Below are positions 1,493 to 52,960 of a DNA stretch of 64,000 nt, one piece after another. The translations under genes were made by a program, and so were the position numbers. Numbering within the stretch: position 1 is the stretch's first letter; every line of letters starts with the position of its first letter. Below the pieces are notes generated by a model that saw only the letters and a list, made by a program, of their open reading frames with translations, was not told where the DNA came from and searched no databases. The DNA is from Nanobdellota archaeon (lineage in GTDB: Archaea; Nanobdellota; Nanobdellia; Pacearchaeales; GW2011-AR1): contig JAKADZ010000001.1 of assembly GCA_021818475.1 (NCBI GenBank), positions 72,562-136,561 on the forward strand, written 5' to 3'.

Positions 1493-1584
1493 CTATTCTT
1501 TCTTCATCCCCTTAATATGTAAATCGTGCATTCATTTGGCTCGAAGAGACGAATGACATTTGAACTTCATTCAAATCACGAACT
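1493..1584. repeat. hairpin module plus displaced diverged copy of the Lhr C-terminal codons
   Basis: Core hairpin TCATTTGGCTCGAAGAGACGAATGA at 1532-1556. A second hairpin (7-bp stem) lies at 1558-1576. Positions 1493-1531 (minus) read ATGCACGATTTACATATTAAGGGGATGAAGAAAGAATAG = MHDLHIKGMKKE*, which mirrors the real Lhr end MHELHLKGIKE*. Confidence 0.65.
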
Positions 1585-4161
1585 TCACTCTTTTATTCCT
1601 TTCAAATGAAGTTCGTGCATTCTTTTCAAGAATGCCTGTTTGTCTTCTATCTTTATCATGTCAGAATGCCCCTGCATTATAATTCCCAATGCAAACGGAC
1701 TTGGAAGTTCAGTATCCCTGATTTTTATCTTAACTCTTCCTTCTTTTATCCACTGCAGAACTAATTTCGCATTTTCAATATCCATTAAATCTTCAAGAAC
1801 TTCTCTTCTCGCTTCCCTTAAAATAGGAAATTCAGATGAGATTTTCTTAACTGCTGCAAGAACAAAATGAGATTTCATATTCTGTTTTCCTACTGATTTT
1901 TTCATTCCTCTGTAAGTTTTTAGAATCATCATAGACCTTGTCGCGCAATGTCTGAATCTCCTCGCCAAAACATCAGTTCTCTCAACAGCTTCTTTCAAAA
2001 CTTCCTCAAGATTTTCAGGTTTCAGAAAATTCATAACTTTCTCAATGTTCATTTTTTCTCCTGCGATGTAAAAACTGCTGTCATTAATTCCCATCTCAAC
2101 ATCTCTTCCTCCTGCCCTGCCAAGCAAAAATCCGATTGCTCTGGATAAAACATCGTTGACTCTTCTTCCATACATGCTGTGAAAAATCAGATAATTCTTT
2201 TCTGAATTGTATCTCTCAACCAATAAATTGCCTGAATGAGGAATCTCAAGATAATTATGCTGTTCATAAAAATAATTGTAAATTGAATCTGCTGTTGAAT
2301 TATCAACATAAAGATGTTCTTTTATCAGTTCGATTATCTCTGATTTTTTAACCTTATTTTTGAATCGGTCATTCATCAATGTTCTGAATTTATTAATTTC
2401 AATTGCAGAATCAAAACTAAGCGGAAGCATTTCGCTAAACCATGAAGGAATAGTCGGCGAGCGGTCAACAGCAGGCCTTACATAAACATTCATCCCCCTA
2501 GTGTAAAGATAAATATATTTCTTTCCTCCCAAAACAAAAACATCTCCTTTCTTCATTCTTTCCAAAAATCCCTCGTCAATTGCCCCAATAGGTTCATTGC
2601 TTGGAGACATTTTTACTGTGATAAAAGATTCTTCGGGGATTGTTCCGATATTTGTAAGGTAAAGAACCCTCGCCATTTTGCCTTTCTTGCCTATCTGTTT
2701 GGTTTTTTGGTCATACCATATTTTTGCATAAATATTATTTTTCTCAAGCGCATAATCCCCAGCAAGATAACTTATCACGTCATAAAAATCATTTCTTGTA
2801 AGATTTGAATAGCAATAGCTTTTTTTTACCAAAGAAAATAATTCCTCTGCATCCCATATTTTGTAAATAGACATTCCGAATATCTGCTGACTAAGAACAT
2901 CAAGGCAATTTTTCGGAAAATAAATTCTGTTTATCTTTTTTTCAATCATCTCTTTCTGGATTATACTGCATTCAACTAAATCATCCCTGTCCAGAATTAT
3001 GAATCTTCCCTTTGCTATCTCGTGAAGTTTATGCCCCGCCCTTCCCAATCTTTGCAAAGCTCTTGCACTTGATTTCGGACTTCCAAGCATTATGACCAAA
3101 TCAATAAATCCAATATCAATTCCCAGTTCCAAACTGGTTGAGCATACAACTACTTTCAGTTTTCCGTCTCTCAATTTTTCTTCAATCTCAAATCTATGCT
3201 CTTTGCTTAATGAAGAATGATGAGCTGCAATATTATCGTCGCCGTATTCGGTTGGAAATTTTTCTTTGAGATGATTGACTACCCTTTCTGTAGCTGAACG
3301 CGTATTTGTAAAAATCAAAGTTGTCTTATGTTCTTTTATCATAGAATCAATTAAATCGTACACACTGGTTCCGCCAAGGTCTCCACTGATTAAATCCCCG
3401 ACACCTATAACTTTTGTGTCAAGTTTTTTATCAAGTTTTACATTAGCAATTAAAACCTCCCTGTCATCAGATATCCCGACTAAATATTTTGCAACTTCTT
3501 CAAGAGGAGCAATTGTTGCGCTCAGTCCGATTTTAACCGGCCATACCTGGCTTACTTCATTAAGCCTTTCTAAAGTTAAACTCAGATAAACTCCCCTCTT
3601 ATTGTCTAAAGCGTGAATCTCGTCGACAATGCAAAATTCAGTCATTCTTAAATAATCAATAAATTTTTTTGTTGTTAATAAGATTGCAAGAGATTCGGGA
3701 GTTGTAACAAGAATGTGAGGGGATTTTCTTGCCATCTGATTTCTTTCTGCAACAGTTGTATCTCCAGTTCTGAGCCCGACTCTTATTTTCTGAAGTTTAA
3801 TCCCTTTTGCTTCTGCAAGTTTGTAAATATCCTCGAGAGGCTCAATTAAATTTTTGTGAATATCATTGCTCAATGCTTTTAATGGAGAAGTGTAAACCGC
3901 ATAAATGTGATCATCAAGCTGATTTTTTTCTGCAAGCATGACTAAATAATTAATAATTGCAAGAAATGCGGTAAGAGTCTTGCTGCTTCCTGTTGGCGCA
4001 GATATCAAAATATTTCTTCTTTCCCAGACATTCATTACTCCGTATTTTTGAGTGATTGAGAAATTTTTAAATTTTGAAAAGAACCATTCTCTGACGAGCG
4101 GATGCAGAATTCCAATTATTTCTTTGTCTTCTCTTGGCTCAGTTTCAAATATTTGTGTCAT
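1585..4161 (-). CDS. lhr: Lhr-type superfamily 2 ATP-dependent DNA helicase
   Basis: 858 aa. Helicase motifs APTGSSKT (I), DEIH (II), SAT (III) and QRLGRAGH (VI). The long C-terminal region is typical of Lhr-core proteins. Confidence 0.9.
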   Translation of the reverse strand: MTQIFETEPREDKEIIGILHPLVREWFFSKFKNFSITQKYGVMNVWERRNILISAPTGSSKTLTAFLAIINYLVMLAEKNQLDDHIYAVYTSPLKALSNDIHKNLIEPLEDIYKLAEAKGIKLQKIRVGLRTGDTTVAERNQMARKSPHILVTTPESLAILLTTKKFIDYLRMTEFCIVDEIHALDNKRGVYLSLTLERLNEVSQVWPVKIGLSATIAPLEEVAKYLVGISDDREVLIANVKLDKKLDTKVIGVGDLISGDLGGTSVYDLIDSMIKEHKTTLIFTNTRSATERVVNHLKEKFPTEYGDDNIAAHHSSLSKEHRFEIEEKLRDGKLKVVVCSTSLELGIDIGFIDLVIMLGSPKSSARALQRLGRAGHKLHEIAKGRFIILDRDDLVECSIIQKEMIEKKINRIYFPKNCLDVLSQQIFGMSIYKIWDAEELFSLVKKSYCYSNLTRNDFYDVISYLAGDYALEKNNIYAKIWYDQKTKQIGKKGKMARVLYLTNIGTIPEESFITVKMSPSNEPIGAIDEGFLERMKKGDVFVLGGKKYIYLYTRGMNVYVRPAVDRSPTIPSWFSEMLPLSFDSAIEINKFRTLMNDRFKNKVKKSEIIELIKEHLYVDNSTADSIYNYFYEQHNYLEIPHSGNLLVERYNSEKNYLIFHSMYGRRVNDVLSRAIGFLLGRAGGRDVEMGINDSSFYIAGEKMNIEKVMNFLKPENLEEVLKEAVERTDVLARRFRHCATRSMMILKTYRGMKKSVGKQNMKSHFVLAAVKKISSEFPILREARREVLEDLMDIENAKLVLQWIKEGRVKIKIRDTELPSPFALGIIMQGHSDMIKIEDKQAFLKRMHELHLKGIKE

Positions 4162-4624: not shown

Positions 4625-5772
4625 AAACAATATATTTTGACAACGCTGCAACGACAAGAGTCGACGATGAAGTTTTGAAAACAATGCTTCCTTATTTTAC
4701 TGAGAATTATGGAAATGCCTCTTCAATTCATTTCAAAGGCCAGGAAGCAAAAGATGCAATGGAAAAAAGCAGAAAGATAATCGCAAAAGCTTTGGGGGCA
4801 AAAACTGAAGAAATAATTTTTACTTCAGGGGGAACAGAATCAAATAATCTTGCATTGAAAGGATTATTCTTCTGGAATAAAGAAAATAACACGGGCAAAG
4901 ATCACATAATCACAACCAAAATCGAGCATGATTGTATTCTAAACACCTGCAAATGGCTGGAAAGACAGGGAGCAAAAGTAACTTATCTTGACGTTGACGA
5001 AGAAGGATTTGTCGATTTAAACCAGCTTGAAAAATCAATAACTGATAAAACAATTGTTGTTTCAATAATTCATGGGAATAATGAAATTGGGACAATACAG
5101 GACATGGAAAAAATTGGGAATATCTGCAGGAAGAAAGGAGTTTTATTCCATACTGATGCATGCCAAAGTTTCACAAAAACTTTCCTTGATGTTAAAAAAC
5201 AAAATCTTGATTTAGTAACATTAAATTCGCATAAAATACACGGGCCAAAAGGAGTCGGAGCGTTATATATTCGTGAAGGAATAAAAATAGTCCCTCTGAT
5301 GCATGGCGGAGGCCATGAAAGAAAAATAAGAAGCGGAACAGAAAATGTTTCCGGAATAGTCGGATTTGGAAAAGCAGTTGATATTGCAAATAAAAAAAAT
5401 GTTGAAAAAATGATTAAATTAAGAGATAAATTAATTGAAGGAATATTAAAAATCCCAAAAACAAGACTTAACGGGGCTAAAGAAAAAAGGCTCTGCAATA
5501 ATATAAATGTCTCTTTCAGCAACATAGAAGGAGAATCAATTAGTGGTTATCTGGAGACTCATGGCATCTGCACTTCTACAGGAAGTGCCTGTGCATCACA
5601 TTCATTGGAAACAAGTCATGTTTTGAAAGCAATCGGACTGCCTCCGGTTCAGTCAAACAGCACATTAAGAATCAGTATAAGCAAATATACCACCGAAGAA
5701 GAAGTTGATTATTTTTTAAAAGTTCTTCCTGGAATAGTTGAAAAATTAAGGAGGATGTCTCCAATAAAATGA
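4621..5772 (+). CDS. nifS: cysteine desulfurase (NifS/IscS type, class V aminotransferase)
   Basis: 383 aa. Motifs SGGTESNN, PLP-lysine context SHKIHGPKG and catalytic Cys loop STGSACAS. Confidence 0.92.
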   Translation: MKTIYFDNAATTRVDDEVLKTMLPYFTENYGNASSIHFKGQEAKDAMEKSRKIIAKALGAKTEEIIFTSGGTESNNLALKGLFFWNKENNTGKDHIITTKIEHDCILNTCKWLERQGAKVTYLDVDEEGFVDLNQLEKSITDKTIVVSIIHGNNEIGTIQDMEKIGNICRKKGVLFHTDACQSFTKTFLDVKKQNLDLVTLNSHKIHGPKGVGALYIREGIKIVPLMHGGGHERKIRSGTENVSGIVGFGKAVDIANKKNVEKMIKLRDKLIEGILKIPKTRLNGAKEKRLCNNINVSFSNIEGESISGYLETHGICTSTGSACASHSLETSHVLKAIGLPPVQSNSTLRISISKYTTEEEVDYFLKVLPGIVEKLRRMSPIK

Positions 5773-5824
5773 CACTTATTCATTCGCTAAATAAATTATC
5801 AAATGAGAGAATGAGCCCGATACA

Positions 5825-6064
5825 ATGAAAGAGTTAAGCAAATTAGTTCCTGGAGAAGAAGGAGTTATATCTGATATAACTTGTACTCGTGAACTTGCAA
5901 GCAGATTAATGACGATGGGAATTTATCGGGGAAATAAAATAACAATGCTTCGCGCTGCTCCTTTCGGAGGCCCACTCGAAGTTGACGTAGGATATAATGT
6001 GCTAATCAGAAAATCTGAGGCAAGATATGTTCAAGTAGAAAAATTGGAGGAAAATTTAAAATGA
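5825..6064 (+). CDS. feoA: FeoA-domain protein
   Basis: 79-aa SH3-like FeoA pattern (LVPGEEGVISDI...RLMTMGIYRGNKITMLR...GPLEVDV). No feoB in the window. Confidence 0.8.
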   Translation: MKELSKLVPGEEGVISDITCTRELASRLMTMGIYRGNKITMLRAAPFGGPLEVDVGYNVLIRKSEARYVQVEKLEENLK

Positions 6065-7764: not shown

Positions 7765-7818
7765 TTATATTATATTTAGACTACTAATCTTAAAAATTCT
7801 AATCTCATTAATTCTATA

Positions 7819-8169
7819 ATGAGCAAGATTAGAAGCAGGCAAAGAGGAGCAAAACTGAATAAATCAAAACATTATAGGATTATTCTGGGAAAAAAAGAAA
7901 TAACTATTCCGGGGAAAAAATTAACTGATAAAGAGATTACTTTTTTTAGGGGAGAAAACAAATATTTTTGTGGCTACTTAAGACAACCTCATCTTTATTT
8001 TGGTAAATTCACCGGGCTTTGCGCTTTATGCGATTTTGGAGCTTGTGATTATCTGCATATTTTTAATTCATTACAAAATTCATGTCCTGTTTATCAACGG
8101 GAAGTTAAAGAAATGGAAGAATATGAGCGTGAAAGATTGGAACATGAAACAATTTATCGTCAGACTTGA
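7819..8169 (+). CDS. hypothetical Cys-containing protein
   Basis: 116-aa ORF with a basic N-terminus and a Cys cluster (CALCDFGACDYLH...SCP). No family recognised. The TGA stop abuts repeat module 8167-8445. Confidence 0.5.
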   Translation: MSKIRSRQRGAKLNKSKHYRIILGKKEITIPGKKLTDKEITFFRGENKYFCGYLRQPHLYFGKFTGLCALCDFGACDYLHIFNSLQNSCPVYQREVKEMEEYERERLEHETIYRQT

Positions 8170-36114: not shown

Positions 36115-38307
36115 ATGGCAGAAAAAGAAACACAATTGCAGAAAATTCAGAGACTCAATTCTAGTCCGAAGAATATCAGAAATATAGCGACAAGCGCGCA
36201 CATTCACCACGGCAAGACTGCATTAACAGATAATCTTCTTGCAGCATCTGGTTATATGGCTGCAAAAAATGCAGGAAACCTTGAAGAAGGAATGGCAACA
36301 TGGCAGCACTCAGATGAACAGGAAAGATTAATGACTGTCGACGCTGCTAACGTTTCTATGGTTCACGATTTTCAGGGTGAACAGTATTTAATTAATTTAA
36401 TTGATACCCCAGGTCACGTCGATTTCGGAGGAAATGTTACAAGGGCTATGAGAGCTATCGACGGAACAATCGTTTTGGTATGCGCTGTCGAGGGAATAAT
36501 GCCCCAGACAGAGACAGTTATCAAACAGGCATTGAGAGAAAGAGTTCAGCCGGTTTTATTTATCAATAAAGTTGACAGATTAATCAAAGAAATGAAACTG
36601 ACTCCAGAAAGCATGCAGCAAAGATTTGTAAAAATCATCAATGAATTTAATGATTTAATTGCAAAAATTGCAGAACCTGAATTTAAAGAAAAATGGCTTG
36701 TTAATATTAATGATGGAAGTGTTGCATTCGGAAGTGCGAAAGAAAACTGGGCATTGTCAGTTCCGTTTATGAAAAAAAATGGAATTACTTTCAAAGATAT
36801 TTTTACATTAGTTGAAATGAACGACGCTGACAGAAAAGAATGGACATGGAAAAATGCGCCGTTATATGAAGTTCTTTTGGATATGGCAGTAAAACATTTA
36901 CCTAATCCTTTAGAAGCACAGAAATACAGAATTCCAAAAATCTGGAAAGGAGATTTAGATTCTGAATTCGGGAAAGATTTAATGAACTGCAATCCAAACG
37001 GAAAAATTGGTTTTGTCATCACAAGAATTGTAATCGACCCTCGTTCAGGAAAAGAAATTTCAGCAGGAAGATTATTCTCTGGAACATTAAGAAATGGTAT
37101 GGATGTTCATCTTAACTTGGCAAACAAAGAACAAAAAGTTCAGCAGATATTTGTATACAATGGAGTAAAGCCCGAACAGATTGATGAAATCGGTCCTGGA
37201 AATGTATTAGCAATTTCAGGAGTTACAGGAGAAGCTGGAGAAACTGTAACAGTAGGTCCTGAAACTCCTTTCGAAGAATTGAAACATATTTTTGAACCGG
37301 TAGTTACAAAGTCAATTGAAGTAAAAAAGATGATGGACTTGCCAAAGCTCGTCGAGATTTTGAAACAGGTCGCAAAAGAAGACCCTTCTGTTAAAGTTGA
37401 AATTAATGAACAGACAGGAGAATCTTTAATTTCAGGAATGGGGGAACTTCATCTGGAAATTATTGAAAACAGAATTAAAACCGAGAAAGGACTTGATGTA
37501 AAAACTTCAGCACCTATCGTAGTATACAGGGAAACAGTCAATAAAGAATCACCTTCTGTCGAGGGAAGAAGTCCAAACAAACACAATAGTTTCTTTATTT
37601 CAGTCGAGCCTTTGGAAGATGATGTTTATGAAGCAATCAAAAGCGGAGAAATTCCCGAGGGAAGAGTCAAGAAAAAGAGCGGAGAACTTGCAACAAAATT
37701 CTCAAGATTCCCCGAATGGGATAACGAAACTGTAAAGAGCATCAGGGATATTTACAAAGGAAATGTTTTCTTCGACAAAACAAAAGGAGAAGTTCACATC
37801 GGTGAAGTTATCGAAATGGTATTGGACGCTTTCGAAATGGTTATTGACAAAGGACCATTGGCAAGAGAACCATGCACCAAGATGAAAGTTTCTCTTATGG
37901 ATATCAGACTTCACGAAGATGCAATTCACAGAGGTCCTGCTCAGGTTTACCCTGCAGTAAGGGAAGCAATGACTGAAGCAATGAAACAGGGGGACGCTTG
38001 TCTGCTTGAACCGGTCCAGATTCACCTAATTGAAGTTCCCGACAGATTTATGAACACAATCACAAGACTAGTCGGAGGCAAGAGAGGACAAATGCTTGAA
38101 GTATCTCAGGAAGGAGATGAAACACAAATAAGAGCAAAGATTCCCGTCGCTGAAATGATTGGATGGAGCAATGACTTGCGTTCTGCAACAGAAGGAAGAG
38201 GAGTTTCATCACTGGCAGATCAGTTATTCGAAAAAGTTCCTCGTTCTTTGACTGATGAAATCGTTAGAAAGATCAGAGAAAGAAAAGGTTTAGCCGAAAA
38301 CCAGTAA
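36115..38307 (+). CDS. fusA: translation elongation factor 2 (aEF-2)
   Basis: 730 aa. G1 AHIHHGKT, G3 DTPGH, NKVDR and the diphthamide-region HEDAIHRG. Confidence 0.97.
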   Translation: MAEKETQLQKIQRLNSSPKNIRNIATSAHIHHGKTALTDNLLAASGYMAAKNAGNLEEGMATWQHSDEQERLMTVDAANVSMVHDFQGEQYLINLIDTPGHVDFGGNVTRAMRAIDGTIVLVCAVEGIMPQTETVIKQALRERVQPVLFINKVDRLIKEMKLTPESMQQRFVKIINEFNDLIAKIAEPEFKEKWLVNINDGSVAFGSAKENWALSVPFMKKNGITFKDIFTLVEMNDADRKEWTWKNAPLYEVLLDMAVKHLPNPLEAQKYRIPKIWKGDLDSEFGKDLMNCNPNGKIGFVITRIVIDPRSGKEISAGRLFSGTLRNGMDVHLNLANKEQKVQQIFVYNGVKPEQIDEIGPGNVLAISGVTGEAGETVTVGPETPFEELKHIFEPVVTKSIEVKKMMDLPKLVEILKQVAKEDPSVKVEINEQTGESLISGMGELHLEIIENRIKTEKGLDVKTSAPIVVYRETVNKESPSVEGRSPNKHNSFFISVEPLEDDVYEAIKSGEIPEGRVKKKSGELATKFSRFPEWDNETVKSIRDIYKGNVFFDKTKGEVHIGEVIEMVLDAFEMVIDKGPLAREPCTKMKVSLMDIRLHEDAIHRGPAQVYPAVREAMTEAMKQGDACLLEPVQIHLIEVPDRFMNTITRLVGGKRGQMLEVSQEGDETQIRAKIPVAEMIGWSNDLRSATEGRGVSSLADQLFEKVPRSLTDEIVRKIRERKGLAENQ

Positions 38308-38362
38308 GGCTAAATCATTCATTCGTCAAAGCCAAATGAAAGGACTTGCTGAGAATCAGTAA
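38289..38362. repeat. stop-spanning hairpin, CGAATG-type hairpin module and displaced synonymous copy of the aEF-2 C-terminal codons
   Basis: TTTAGCC (38289-38295) pairs with GGCTAAA (38308-38314) across the stop codon. The core TCATTCGTCAAAGCCAAATGA lies at 38319-38339. Positions 38339-38362, AAAGGACTTGCTGAGAATCAGTAA, encode KGLAENQ*, identical to the real C-terminus. Confidence 0.7.
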
Positions 38363-38378
38363 AATTTCTAAATAAAAA

Positions 38379-38630
38379 ATGACAACCAAAGGATTACTCC
38401 AACTTTGTGAAATAAATCTTGAAAAATTAAGAAAAGGTGAACTTTCCTCAGAAGATTTTTATGAAATTTACAGAGAACATATTAAAAATCACGAAAGTGA
38501 AATTGAAAGATTAAGTGAAGAAAATGAAAAATACCGAAGAGGAGCAAAATATCTAAAACAAGAAATTAAAAAAATAAAAACAGAACTCTCTGATTTAGAA
38601 TTTAATTATACAAGTTTGTTTGAGAATTAG
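38379..38630 (+). CDS. hypothetical coiled-coil protein
   Basis: 83-aa ORF, K/E-rich with heptad-like sequence. No family recognised. Confidence 0.45.
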   Translation: MTTKGLLQLCEINLEKLRKGELSSEDFYEIYREHIKNHESEIERLSEENEKYRRGAKYLKQEIKKIKTELSDLEFNYTSLFEN

Positions 38631-38664
38631 TAATCTCCGACGAAAAAATTAATTTTTATTTGAA

Positions 38665-38952
38665 TTAATCGTAATCAGAAATTTTATAATCACAAATTTC
38701 ACATCGGTAAACTGTTATTTCAGAACAGTCTCCAAGTTTTATTGTTCCATCATATGCCATACTTTTAACCCCGCATTTTTCACAGAATCTTTTCCCATTT
38801 GGAGTTTTAGGCATTGAATTACGAAGTTCTTCTTCGAGTTTTGAAATTTCCCCTCGGTATAATGAAATTTTTGGATTAATCTCTTCAGATAAAATTTTGT
38901 ATATCTCTCCTTTTTTTCTGAATTTTTCTTTTTGTCTTTCAGTTAATGCCAT
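38665..38952 (-). CDS. hypothetical zinc-ribbon protein
   Basis: 95 aa with an N-terminal coiled segment and C-terminal CEKCG...CEIC (CxxC-N22-CxxC). Confidence 0.55.
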   Translation of the reverse strand: MALTERQKEKFRKKGEIYKILSEEINPKISLYRGEISKLEEELRNSMPKTPNGKRFCEKCGVKSMAYDGTIKLGDCSEITVYRCEICDYKISDYD

Positions 38953-39070
38953 GTTAAGTTTTTTCTCCTCGGTTTTCTACCATGCTAGGTTCTTTTTTCA
39001 AAAGAACCCGCTTTTTAAAGATGATTATTCTCCGAGGGAATATCGTCTAGTTTTTTCAATAACCAAAACA

Positions 39071-39078
39071 TTTATAAA
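39071..39078 (+). promoter_or_regulatory. TATA box for aEF-1alpha gene
   Basis: TTTATAAA lies 21 nt upstream of the ATG at 39100. Confidence 0.5.
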
Positions 39079-39099
39079 TAATATTTTTTAATAACTTTT

Positions 39100-52455: not shown

Positions 52456-52479
52456 GGAGAAATATCTCTTCAATATTAT

Positions 52480-52597
52480 AGCGGGGTGGAGCAGCCTGGA
52501 GTGCTCGTCGGGCCCATAAGCAAATCCGTAGGTTTGTATTCCTACGCTGTCGCATAGGAAACCCGAAGGTCGTGTGGTTCAAATCCCACCCCCGCTA
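52480..52597 (+). tRNA. initiator tRNA-Met (anticodon CAT) with ~42-nt intron at the canonical 37/38 position
   Basis: Acceptor AGCGGGG/CCCCGCT (A1:U72) and anticodon stem TCGGG/CCCGA (three G-C pairs 29-31:39-41) are initiator hallmarks. The loop is CCCATA, followed by the intron at ~52519-52560, which contains its own hairpin CGTAGG/CCTACG. The T arm has one extra nucleotide (GTGTGG versus CCCAC). Confidence 0.85.
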
Positions 52598-52617
52598 TTC
52601 CATAAAATGGAAATTAG

Positions 52618-52688
52618 CCCCTCATAGCATAGTGGTAATGCAGTCGGCTGTAGACCGGCGTATCCAAGTTCGATTCTTGGTGAGGGGA
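52618..52688 (+). tRNA. tRNA-Tyr (anticodon GTA)
   Basis: Acceptor CCCCTCA/TGAGGGG with the archaeal/eukaryal C1:G72 identity pair, D stem GCAT/ATGC, anticodon stem GTCGG/CCGGC, loop CTGTAGA, T arm CCAAG-TTCGATT-CTTGG, discriminator A. Confidence 0.92.
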
Positions 52689-52960
52689 TATAATTCGGTT
52701 AAGCGAAGCGAAATCGAATTCATTAAAGAATCGAACGTAGTTTCATTTGGCTCGAAGAGACGAATGAGAGGGAACGAGCGAAGCGAAGTGAACTCCGATT
52801 CTTGGTGAGGGGACTTTTATATTCCGCAAATAGAAAATAATTCCCTGTTGGGCGGGCGAGAGTTTTCGCGATGGTAAGGTCAGTGTTAAGTGGGCGGGGG
52901 CTCGAGCTGGTGAGGGGACTTTATTATTTCACGAATAGAAAAATAATTCCGTTCTGTGCA
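52689..52960 (+). repeat. two inserts, each followed by a repeated tRNA-Tyr 3' end plus original downstream flank
   Basis: CGATTCTTGGTGAGGGGA at 52796-52813 is identical to the tRNA 3' end, and TGGTGAGGGGA recurs at 52908-52918. Both are followed by a similar ~45-nt flank (CTTT.AT.ATT.C.CG.AAATAGAAAA.TAATTCC). Insert 1 (52689-52794) carries the core TCATTTGGCTCGAAGAGACGAATGA (52743-52767) and an inverted copy of the T-arm (AAGAATCGAAC). Insert 2 (52851-52907) is GC-rich. Confidence 0.75.

Follow-up and report, generated by a model that had tools for sequence, protein, structure and literature searches.

The subject of this analysis is the 3' end of an Lhr-type helicase gene encoded on the minus strand of a 64,000-nt stretch of DNA from a Nanobdellota archaeon of the order Pacearchaeales (contig JAKADZ010000001.1, positions 72,562 to 136,561), hereafter called the window. 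With moderate confidence, we read the 89 bases at 1620–1532 (minus strand) as a miniature, non-coding, site-specific insertion cassette that has displaced the native tail of the gene, so that two versions of the tail now flank the insert in the manner of the attL and attR attachment (att) sites of integrated elements. The host gene (1585..4161, minus; 858 aa in the list of open reading frames, ORFs) carries DEAD, Helicase_C, WHD_Lhr and DEAD_assoc domains, and its homologues are labelled Lhr-like helicase in Pacearchaeota. The window has a G+C content of 34%, and the closest homologues of its Lhr and of its archaeal elongation factor 2 (aEF-2) come from metagenome-assembled genomes (MAGs) of Pacearchaeota, Nanoarchaeota and 'Woesearchaeota'.

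The tail in use, T1 (1585..1620, minus; ATG CAC GAA CTT CAT TTG AAA GGA ATA AAA GAG TGA), reads MHELHLKGIKE up to its stop codon; the closest relatives have tails with one codon more. The displaced tail, T2 (1493..1531, minus), reads ATG CAC GAT TTA CAT ATT AAG GGG ATG AAG AAA GAA TAG, that is, MHDLHIKGMKKE followed by a stop codon; it is as long as the tails of the closest relatives, and over its first 22 nt it is almost the same as in the related locus L120. We take T1 as the putative cassette-borne copy and T2 as the putative native gene end. The two tails, of 36 and 39 nt, flank the insert and form a direct repeat of 35 nt (74%, spacing 89), and the left edge is marked by a 10-nt identity, GAATGCACGA. 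Between them lies a non-coding spacer of 53 nt (1584–1532) with three hairpins. Hairpin 1 (1577..1617, minus) has a perfect stem of 11 bp, formed by the inverted repeat 1577–1587/1607–1617 and recovered by folding, in which the in-gene codons CACGAACTTCA pair with the TGA plus the 8 nt behind it (TGAAGTTCGTG), enclosing the stop codon. Hairpin 2 (1558..1576, minus), ATTTGAA-TGAAG-TTCAAAT, was likewise recovered by folding. The third hairpin, which we call the core and which defines the family described below, spans 25 nt (1532..1556, minus) and reads TCATTCGTC-TCTTCGA-GCCAAATGA on the sense strand of the gene. Its sequence, TCATTTGGCTCGAAGAGACGAATGA, occurs exactly twice in the window, at 1532–1556 and at 52743–52767, and not once in shuffled sequences.

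A preliminary description of the locus, made from the letters alone, had already reported the gene end with its 53-nt spacer, the second tail with synonymous or conservative changes, the three consecutive stem-loops with their 11-bp repeat, and the identity of the two cores. Every one of these sequence statements was confirmed, the stem of hairpin 2 measuring 7–8 bp. It had also judged coincidence unlikely, and the statistics agree. T2 aligned to T1 scores 43 (BLOSUM62), whereas shuffling the 300 nt downstream 1000 times gave best scores that averaged 8.0 +/- 3.7, with a maximum of 28 (0/1000 reaching 43). Both tails lie within the variation of 120 Lhr homologues. When all window ORFs of at least 100 aa were scanned for downstream copies of their last 7 residues, aEF-2, Lhr and the cysteine desulfurase NifS ranked as the top three, and these are exactly the three genes followed by a core. 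In silico folding of the 141-nt Lhr end region, which had been proposed as a check, gave structures better than those of shuffled sequences (z of -3.0 as sense RNA, -4.4 as antisense RNA and -4.1 as DNA). Regarding a possible misassembly, the identical Lhr protein is found on 8 contigs, and the one that we retrieved (L001) has the same arrangement; in a relative, a homologous arrangement was assembled identically from two different samples (L129 and L205). The duplication of the Lhr tail is far beyond chance and is no assembly artefact.

The insertion is polymorphic. Among 80 related metagenome loci, about 70 had a readable Lhr gene end, and with one exception the stop codon was followed by unrelated DNA. 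The exception is L129, found again as L205 in another sample, which carries an insert at the same position. It consists of the Lhr tail, an arm GTGAAGTTCCTG complementary to the HELH codons, a hairpin ATTTGAAC-AAA-GTTCAAAT, the core, and MHELHVKGI as a second tail. This homologous insert conserves the 3' arm of hairpin 1, and its core shows a compensatory change of the outer stem from TCA..TGA to AAA..TTT. Over the 3' arm of hairpin 1 and hairpin 2, the window and L129 are identical at 29 of 32 positions, whereas identity at the third codon positions of their Lhr genes is 0.57. Several insert-free lineages are closer to the window Lhr than L129 is, and the displaced tails of both loci are still readable as Lhr ends. 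Taken together, the near-identical arm and hairpin between distant genes, the closer empty lineages and the readable displaced tails argue for related cassettes having reached the same Lhr site recently and independently, and against a single ancient insertion. The in-use tail of L129 (HTKNIK) resembles the native tail of L206, another lineage with an empty site, and its displaced tail (VKGI) resembles those of its own subclade. In a mosaic test of the Lhr 3' region, the closest relatives were only ~60% identical at third codon positions. The other sites behave similarly: the NifS site is empty in 15/15 relatives, and the aEF-2 site is empty in four of the six relatives retrieved (L199, L201, L203 and L204) and filled in L202 and L200.

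In total, the window holds four members of this kind, at Lhr, NifS, aEF-2 and tRNA-Tyr, each with its insert between two copies of a gene or tRNA end and with the hairpin pattern TCATTCG...CAAATGA. The NifS-type member (5749..5828, plus) has a first tail at 5749–5772 (RRMSPIK), a 7-nt spacer, a looser core at 5780–5806 and a displaced tail at 5805–5828 (ERMSPIQ), the TGA of which overlaps the ATG of the next gene (FeoA). At aEF-2 (38284..38362, plus), the first tail (38284–38307), a short core (38319–38339) and the second tail (38339–38362) follow one another; both tails read KGLAENQ, and an arm GGCTAAA (38308–38314) pairs with TTTAGCC in the first. The tRNA-Tyr member (52618..52813, plus) comprises tRNA-Tyr(GTA) at 52618–52688, an inverted copy of its T-arm at 52726–52736, the core at 52743–52767 in the opposite orientation, and an exact 18-nt copy of the tRNA 3' end at 52796–52813; L031 has a homologous arrangement at its tRNA-Tyr. 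The earlier proposal of one insertion or replacement process at Lhr and aEF-2 is supported, as the same hairpin family lies between gene-end copies at both. Two refinements are needed: the phenomenon does not depend on one core, aEF-2 having a diverged homologous hairpin and also unrelated inserts between tail copies, and the family extends to gene starts and tRNA ends.

Comparison with relatives also indicates which of the two copies came in, and here the preliminary description is refined. The NifS ends of 15/15 relatives read ...ATG AG(C/T) CC(G/A) ATA AAA TGA. At the Ser-Pro codons, the displaced copy of the window has AGC CCG and the in-use copy TCT CCA. Because the displaced copy keeps the Ser and Pro codons of the relatives as well as the overlap of its TGA with the next start codon, the comparison shows it to be the native end and the in-use copy to be the incoming one. 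The same assignment is shown for aEF-2; for Lhr, the length of T2 and its likeness to related tails are suggestive only.

At aEF-2, the filled sites of three genomes can be compared. The gene end of L202 consists of AAAGGTTTAGCTGAAAACCAGTAA, a 31-nt hairpin and (G)AAGGATTAGCAGAGAACCAATAA. L200 carries four aEF-2 tails between 1655 and 2273, all reading (K/E)GLAENQ and separated by gaps of 54 nt, 442 nt and 27 nt; the 442-nt unit contains a 124-aa ORF on the opposite strand with no Pfam or PHROG match, and the whole array looks like repeated integration at one site. The 27-nt insert of L200, the 31-nt insert of L202 and the window insert are diverged versions of one hairpin, with a loop-proximal GTC/GCC that includes a T.C mismatch, and the point at which the hairpin meets the following tail is the same to the nucleotide in all three genomes. 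When the window, L202 and the third L200 tail are compared, the tail preceding this hairpin differs by only 1–2 of 24 nt, whereas the host genes are 0.43–0.47 identical at third positions and the native or displaced tails differ by 3–7 nt. The boundary is sharp: in consecutive 24-nt blocks, the window and L202 share 22, 23, 16, 10 and 16 positions, and then 23 in the tail. In L200, the same near-identical tail stands in a non-genic context. Within the shared stretch, the differences between paired tails are synonymous only (6 in the window, 4 in L202 and 1–3 in L200). We estimate that ~60% of changes would be non-synonymous under free drift after an in-place duplication, which gives P ~1e-5 for 12/12 synonymous differences. 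From the near-identical tails, the sharp boundary and the synonymous-only differences it follows that the tail is part of the mobile unit, which has a length of only 51–55 nt at aEF-2. The comparison shows the aEF-2 tail to move between genomes with its hairpin, the similarity beginning sharply at the tail. Coding selection has acted on the tail, which is what one would predict for a segment that forms the end of the gene in every integrated state. We rejected the alternative that the in-use aEF-2 tail was recoded to pair with the downstream arm, since L202 has the same tail without the arm. Two other aEF-2 genes are irregular: in L201 (~1–330), a change of reading frame upstream of a 324-aa aEF-2 fragment may be due to an insertion or an intein, and P0126 has an aberrant tail (…REEKDLLKTNKN).

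The core hairpin recurs well beyond the window. A scan of one genome per species with the pattern TCATTCGTC-N(1-12)-GCCAAATGA returned at least 114 loci. Among the matches listed, 25 DPANN contigs have the core, to which L100 can be added, which is labelled Omnitrophota and has the same architecture. In these 26 loci, the stem continues into the nominal loop with many different base pairs, and loop length in the family varies from 3 to 13 nt. The covariation among copies that the preliminary description had recommended comparing is pronounced: the stem extensions of 24 distinct copies contain 48 Watson-Crick pairs, compared with 8.0 +/- 2.9 in shuffles (0/5000). Among the matches listed, DPANN copies average 2.14 extension pairs and those in other organisms 0.16; we therefore consider the latter chance matches. 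Given this covariation, the core is a selected hairpin; a genome carries several copies of it.

Family members were found in three contexts: behind protein genes, behind tRNAs and at gene starts. Protein genes have a displaced tail that differs conservatively from the one in use, as in L054 (AKVLAELL/AKIVAELL), L071 (KQEALGKWF/KQETISKWF) and also L085, and a short arm complementary to the in-use tail usually forms a hairpin around the stop codon. tRNA copies are accompanied by an exact duplicate of the tRNA 3' end, together with the T-arm in inverted form. In the gene-start context, AGGAG lies in the loop, and an ATG in the 3' arm begins a real ORF; 14 of 18 such copies contain an in-frame mini-ORF of 11–18 codons that runs into the ATGA starting the gene, and 12 of these 14 mini-ORFs themselves start in AAATGA, the sequence of the core end. 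Copies of the gene-start type are present in L035, L041, L058, L008, L038, L067, L075, L100, L108 and L116 (with mini-ORFs such as MKANQRFSFIR...AK), and three MAGs have an identical 34-nt left part, ATGAAAGCAAATCAAAGATTTTCATTCATTCGTC, each before a different gene. Tandem or nested copies of this type occur in L038 and L044.

Some copies count against the proposed cassette and also bear on a rival explanation. In L117, the repeat extends over 31 nt and runs beyond the stop codon, and the second copy shows damaging differences only; L056 has an exact 36-nt repeat that includes 20 nt past the tRNA; and gene-start copies have exact flanking repeats of 10–22 nt. L117, L056 and several gene-start copies look like in-place duplications, which weighs against a tail-carrying cassette as a general explanation. 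The inserts could instead be explained by a non-autonomous transposon similar to MITEs (miniature transposable elements with inverted repeats). Its core would consist of abutted terminal inverted repeats, an unknown transposase would make staggered cuts that duplicate 10–40 bp of target, an insertion would persist only if the duplicated stretch included a stop or start codon and so left the gene intact, and the copies would then diverge in place. Exact or near-exact repeats of variable length are in line with this (15 nt in L116, 16 in L067, 22 with one mismatch in L038, 36 in L056 and 18 at the window tRNA-Tyr), as are the L117 copy, the 21-nt core of L054 that is directly flanked by both tail copies, the multiplicity of copies within a genome, with two identical ones in the window, and the AAATGA found on both sides of 12 of the 14 gene-start copies. 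Nevertheless, we regard this explanation as unlikely. In-place duplication cannot yield the synonymous-only divergence of aEF-2 tails in three genomes, nor does it explain a near-identical in-use tail with a sharp boundary across genomes whose aEF-2 genes are synonymously saturated. In six gene-end copies, the similarity of the tails ends exactly at the stop codon, which fits coding homology and not a staggered cut. In addition, repeat length varies between 10 and 39 nt, the left end of the inserted segment is not an inverted repeat of the right end, and no transposase was found in the window ORFs searched. In L054 the core is the whole insert; Lhr, aEF-2 and NifS have extra gene-specific sequence on one side only.

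The cassette model can be outlined as follows. At Lhr, the unit would comprise the in-use tail with its stop codon, two hairpins specific to the gene and the core hairpin of the family. Integration would take place at the left edge of the tail (GAATGCACGA at Lhr, AAAGG at aEF-2, AAATGA at gene-start copies), the incoming tail and stop codon would complete the helicase frame, and the native tail would be pushed downstream of the hairpins. A unit of ~50–90 nt that encodes nothing would have to be moved in trans, by short-homology or site-specific recombination, possibly through an excised small circle or a single-stranded intermediate. New targets could be gained if, in an occasional aberrant excision, a hairpin lying behind a stop codon took the neighbouring tail along, and birth by in-place duplication and spread by integration may both occur. 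By analogy, the Lhr cassette would operate like those of aEF-2 and NifS.

Besides the copies that resemble in-place duplications, several observations count against this model. The in-use Lhr tails of the window and L129 are only ~67% identical, compared with 91% for the hairpins; carriage of the tail is therefore demonstrated at aEF-2 and only argued for Lhr, where a variable crossover point and a fast-evolving tail might account for the weak match. With Pfam, neither the cassette nor the window ORFs searched yielded a domain of an integrase, a transposase, Cas1 or a reverse transcriptase. Viral contigs lacked the core, apart from 3 high-GC chance matches, and gave 0 matches to the aEF-2 tail pattern and to the tRNA-Tyr end. 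One core family combined with at least 4 target-specific tails in one genome is not what a classical integrase with a single att specificity would yield. The identity common to both aEF-2 junctions amounts to only 5 nt (AAAGG), and a double-stranded circle of 55 bp is physically implausible.

The array of L200 and the variable surroundings of the gene ends bear on a second rival, in which the inserts are deletion scars of larger integrated elements, such as viruses or plasmids with tyrosine integrases. Deletion would have left attL and attR tens of nt apart, and the hairpin would be a leftover of the element ends, for example a terminator or an integrase-binding site. The 3' ends of aEF-2 and tRNA genes are known archaeal targets, and element sequence can restore the reading frame there (PMC6563490). 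Between tails, the L200 array does hold a unit of 442 nt with an ORF of 124 aa, relatives vary in the region downstream of aEF-2 (HicAB, small ORFs, pyruvate kinase), and the window tRNA-Tyr is followed by another GC-rich insert, which is unrelated and has a duplicated flank to itself. However, random deletions would not repeatedly leave the same covarying hairpin of 21–25 nt at four targets in one genome, the same hairpin is also present in 25 contigs of other genomes among the matches listed, and at aEF-2 its junction with the displaced tail falls on one and the same nucleotide in three genomes. In ~0.9 Mb of DPANN loci, no larger element with insert halves at its ends was found, and core and tail patterns were absent from the viral contigs searched. 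We consider the scar explanation quite improbable.

A third Lhr tail that would bound a larger element downstream of 1493 was looked for and not found. The small ORFs at 38379–38630, 38680–38952, 1004–1441, 609–971 and 116–559 and the 124-aa ORF of L200 gave nothing mobile with Pfam or PHROG. We also rejected a 51-kb integrated element between the two identical cores (1532 and 52743), as the interval holds the genes for aEF-2, aEF-1alpha, RNA polymerase and ribosomal proteins and each core has its own local duplicated target. The neighbourhoods of the aEF-2 and Lhr gene ends vary. Between aEF-2 and aEF-1alpha (38363–39099), the window has a variable island with two small unannotatable ORFs; its place is taken by pyruvate kinase in L199, by HicA/HicB in L204 and by ORFs of unknown function in L203. 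Next to the Lhr cassette, two ORFs for small membrane proteins (145 and 120 aa; 609–1441) add ~0.9 kb and separate the displaced tail from the ORF at 116–559, which directly follows Lhr in L119, L123 and L125, and in L206 HicA and a restriction-modification gene lie downstream of Lhr. The variable stretches behind aEF-2 and Lhr are consistent with integration hotspots at these gene ends.

According to a third rival, the inserts are not mobile at all and represent RNA structures selected in the host, serving to stabilise the 3' end of the mRNA, as a hairpin for translational coupling or as an intron-like element removed by the tRNA splicing endonuclease. They would have arisen locally by duplication-inversion through template switching, and both tails would be kept because both are used. 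This would account for the inverted target copies within the inserts (the Lhr arm, GGCTAAA at aEF-2 and the T-arm of tRNA-Tyr), and the gene-start copies, with AGGAG in the loop, the start codon in the arm and mini-ORFs in 14 of 18, have the design of translational coupling. The intron of a tRNA-Glu contains one core, which pairs with the anticodon, and in the minimum-energy fold of the tRNA-Tyr region the acceptor 5' strand pairs with the second 3' end. Even so, we think this explanation very improbable. The orientation of the core relative to transcription is opposite at tRNA and protein genes, inspection of Lhr and aEF-2 revealed no bulge-helix-bulge motif with its two 3-nt bulges on either side of a 4-bp helix, and hairpin 2 of L129 cannot be derived from its own tails. 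The patchy distribution and the identity of cassettes and tails across genomes, against a saturated host background, point to transfer. There is also no match in Rfam 15, in which only two tRNAs of the window reach threshold and the best match at 1400–1700 has E = 0.48.

The tRNA loci deserve description in their own right. In the minimum-energy fold of 52610–52830, the acceptor 5' strand pairs with the displaced 3' end and the first T-arm with its own inverted copy, with a z of only -1.7; judging by this, a read-through transcript of tRNA-Tyr and cassette could take the shape of a tRNA interrupted in its T-arm. Behind tRNA-Tyr (52850–52907) lies the second, GC-rich insert of ~60 nt (GGGCGGGCGAGAGTTTTCGCGATGGTAAGGTCAGTGT...), flanked by copies of the tRNA end plus trailer at 52804–52845 and 52909–52951 (~42 nt, ~85% identical). 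A related sequence (…TTTCGCGGAAGTAAGGTCAGTGTCATGTAAGCG…) stands between NifS and the next gene in L120, and the insert may represent another small insert family or a small RNA. At 52471–52588 we noticed what looks like a tRNA with CAT as its anticodon (Met or Ile2), the anticodon loop being followed by an intron of ~40 nt (AGCGGGG...GGGCCCATAA, intron, ...GGTTCAAATCCCACCCCCGCTA), which was reported neither by ARAGORN nor by Rfam. In L056 (~7800–7960, minus), a core-type hairpin (TCATTTGGGACGAAGTCACGAATGA) is located within the intron of tRNA-Glu(UUC), where its first three bases are the anticodon-loop positions 35–37, forming the anticodon-intron helix; the neighbouring, cassette-bearing tRNA has an intron too, and ARAGORN missed both.

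Other classes of element were compared and set aside. C/D-box small RNAs, K-turns, integron attC sites and sites of the XerA/dif type were dismissed by eye, as the defining boxes or the fixed spacer are missing. A diversity-generating retroelement was rejected, given that no reverse transcriptase was found in the window ORFs tested and that the differences fall at third codon positions, involve all base types and show no bias towards adenines.

Among the closest parallels, two are archaeal. In Thaumarchaeota, integrative elements and casposons have as their targets tRNA genes and the 3' ends of protein genes, ef-2 among them, and the sequence of the element restores the reading frame and can supply a new stop codon (PMC6563490). 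The cassettes share with such elements the direct repeats at gene ends, a stop codon of their own, the ef-2 and tRNA targets, empty orthologous sites and the repeated use of a single site in tandem, which the L200 array illustrates. As with those elements, the gene-adjacent copy is element-borne and the distal copy native at aEF-2 and NifS, and suggestively so at Lhr. In contrast to them, the cassettes measure 50–90 nt, carry no gene or integrase, combine one hairpin family with many tails, and have junction identities as short as 5 nt. Casposons resemble them further in the tandem repeat-insert-repeat layout, besides the ef-2 3' end and tRNA targets (PMC6563490, PMC6614799). However, the cassettes lack Cas1 and PolB, and their repeats are not identical copies made on insertion. 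The target duplication of casposons has a fixed length of 14–15 bp, whereas the cassette repeats differ in length.

Outside the archaea, cis-mobilisable elements (CIMEs) are integrase-less, att-flanked bacterial derivatives that are mobilised in trans; they are kilobase-sized and have a single att specificity. The cassettes are likewise att-flanked, without a recombinase of their own and presumably moved in trans, and we know of no CIMEs with a hairpin core common to different targets. With MITEs, Correia elements, Rickettsia palindromic elements and repetitive extragenic palindromes or bacterial interspersed mosaic elements (REP/BIME), the cassettes have in common that they are tiny, non-coding, hairpin-forming and present in many copies per genome, that they lie at gene boundaries with gene function preserved, and that the enzyme would act in trans. 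They differ in that their flanking repeats are long and variable and, at protein-gene ends, diverged only synonymously or conservatively, in that the upstream repeat at aEF-2 is carried between genomes, and in that the ends of the segment are not inverted repeats of each other. A literature search on the motif, on DPANN MITEs and on mobile elements of Pacearchaeota found no description of such cassettes. That an element can integrate at the end of a gene and reconstitute it is known; what appears to be new is the tiny, gene-less unit, the hairpin shared across targets and the occurrence in DPANN archaea.

To our knowledge, the genomes of DPANN archaea are very small, and hardly any of their mobile elements have been characterised. 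As a tentative proposal, which we hold with less confidence than the cassette reading of the Lhr insert, these 50–90 nt 'tail-swap' cassettes may be the smallest site-specific mobile elements yet seen, homing to the ends of essential genes. In this proposal, a synonymously diverged gene-end copy next to a conserved hairpin would direct homing to aEF-2, Lhr, NifS and tRNAs, a hairpin-recognising recombinase or a host recombination system would move the cassettes in trans, and targets would be gained by picking up a neighbouring tail, with repeat-insert-repeat arrays built at aEF-2. The chance that they will prove to be a distinct class once the enzyme is known is substantial, although well below even.

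If the proposal is right, DPANN archaea would host ultra-small cassettes that spread between genomes and occupy the ends of essential genes free of cost, as each brings a replacement ending. Gene-end integration with reconstitution would then extend to units without genes, which raises the question of the enzyme that moves them. For annotation, the C-terminus in use may be foreign, and pseudo-ends, mini-ORFs and duplicated tRNA ends near gene boundaries would find an explanation. The cassettes would also be sensitive markers of recent gene flow among synonymously saturated lineages. Finally, the recurrent use of aEF-2 and tRNA ends, which are casposon targets, and the arrays at these sites would provide a useful comparison for how integration hotspots and arrays arise.

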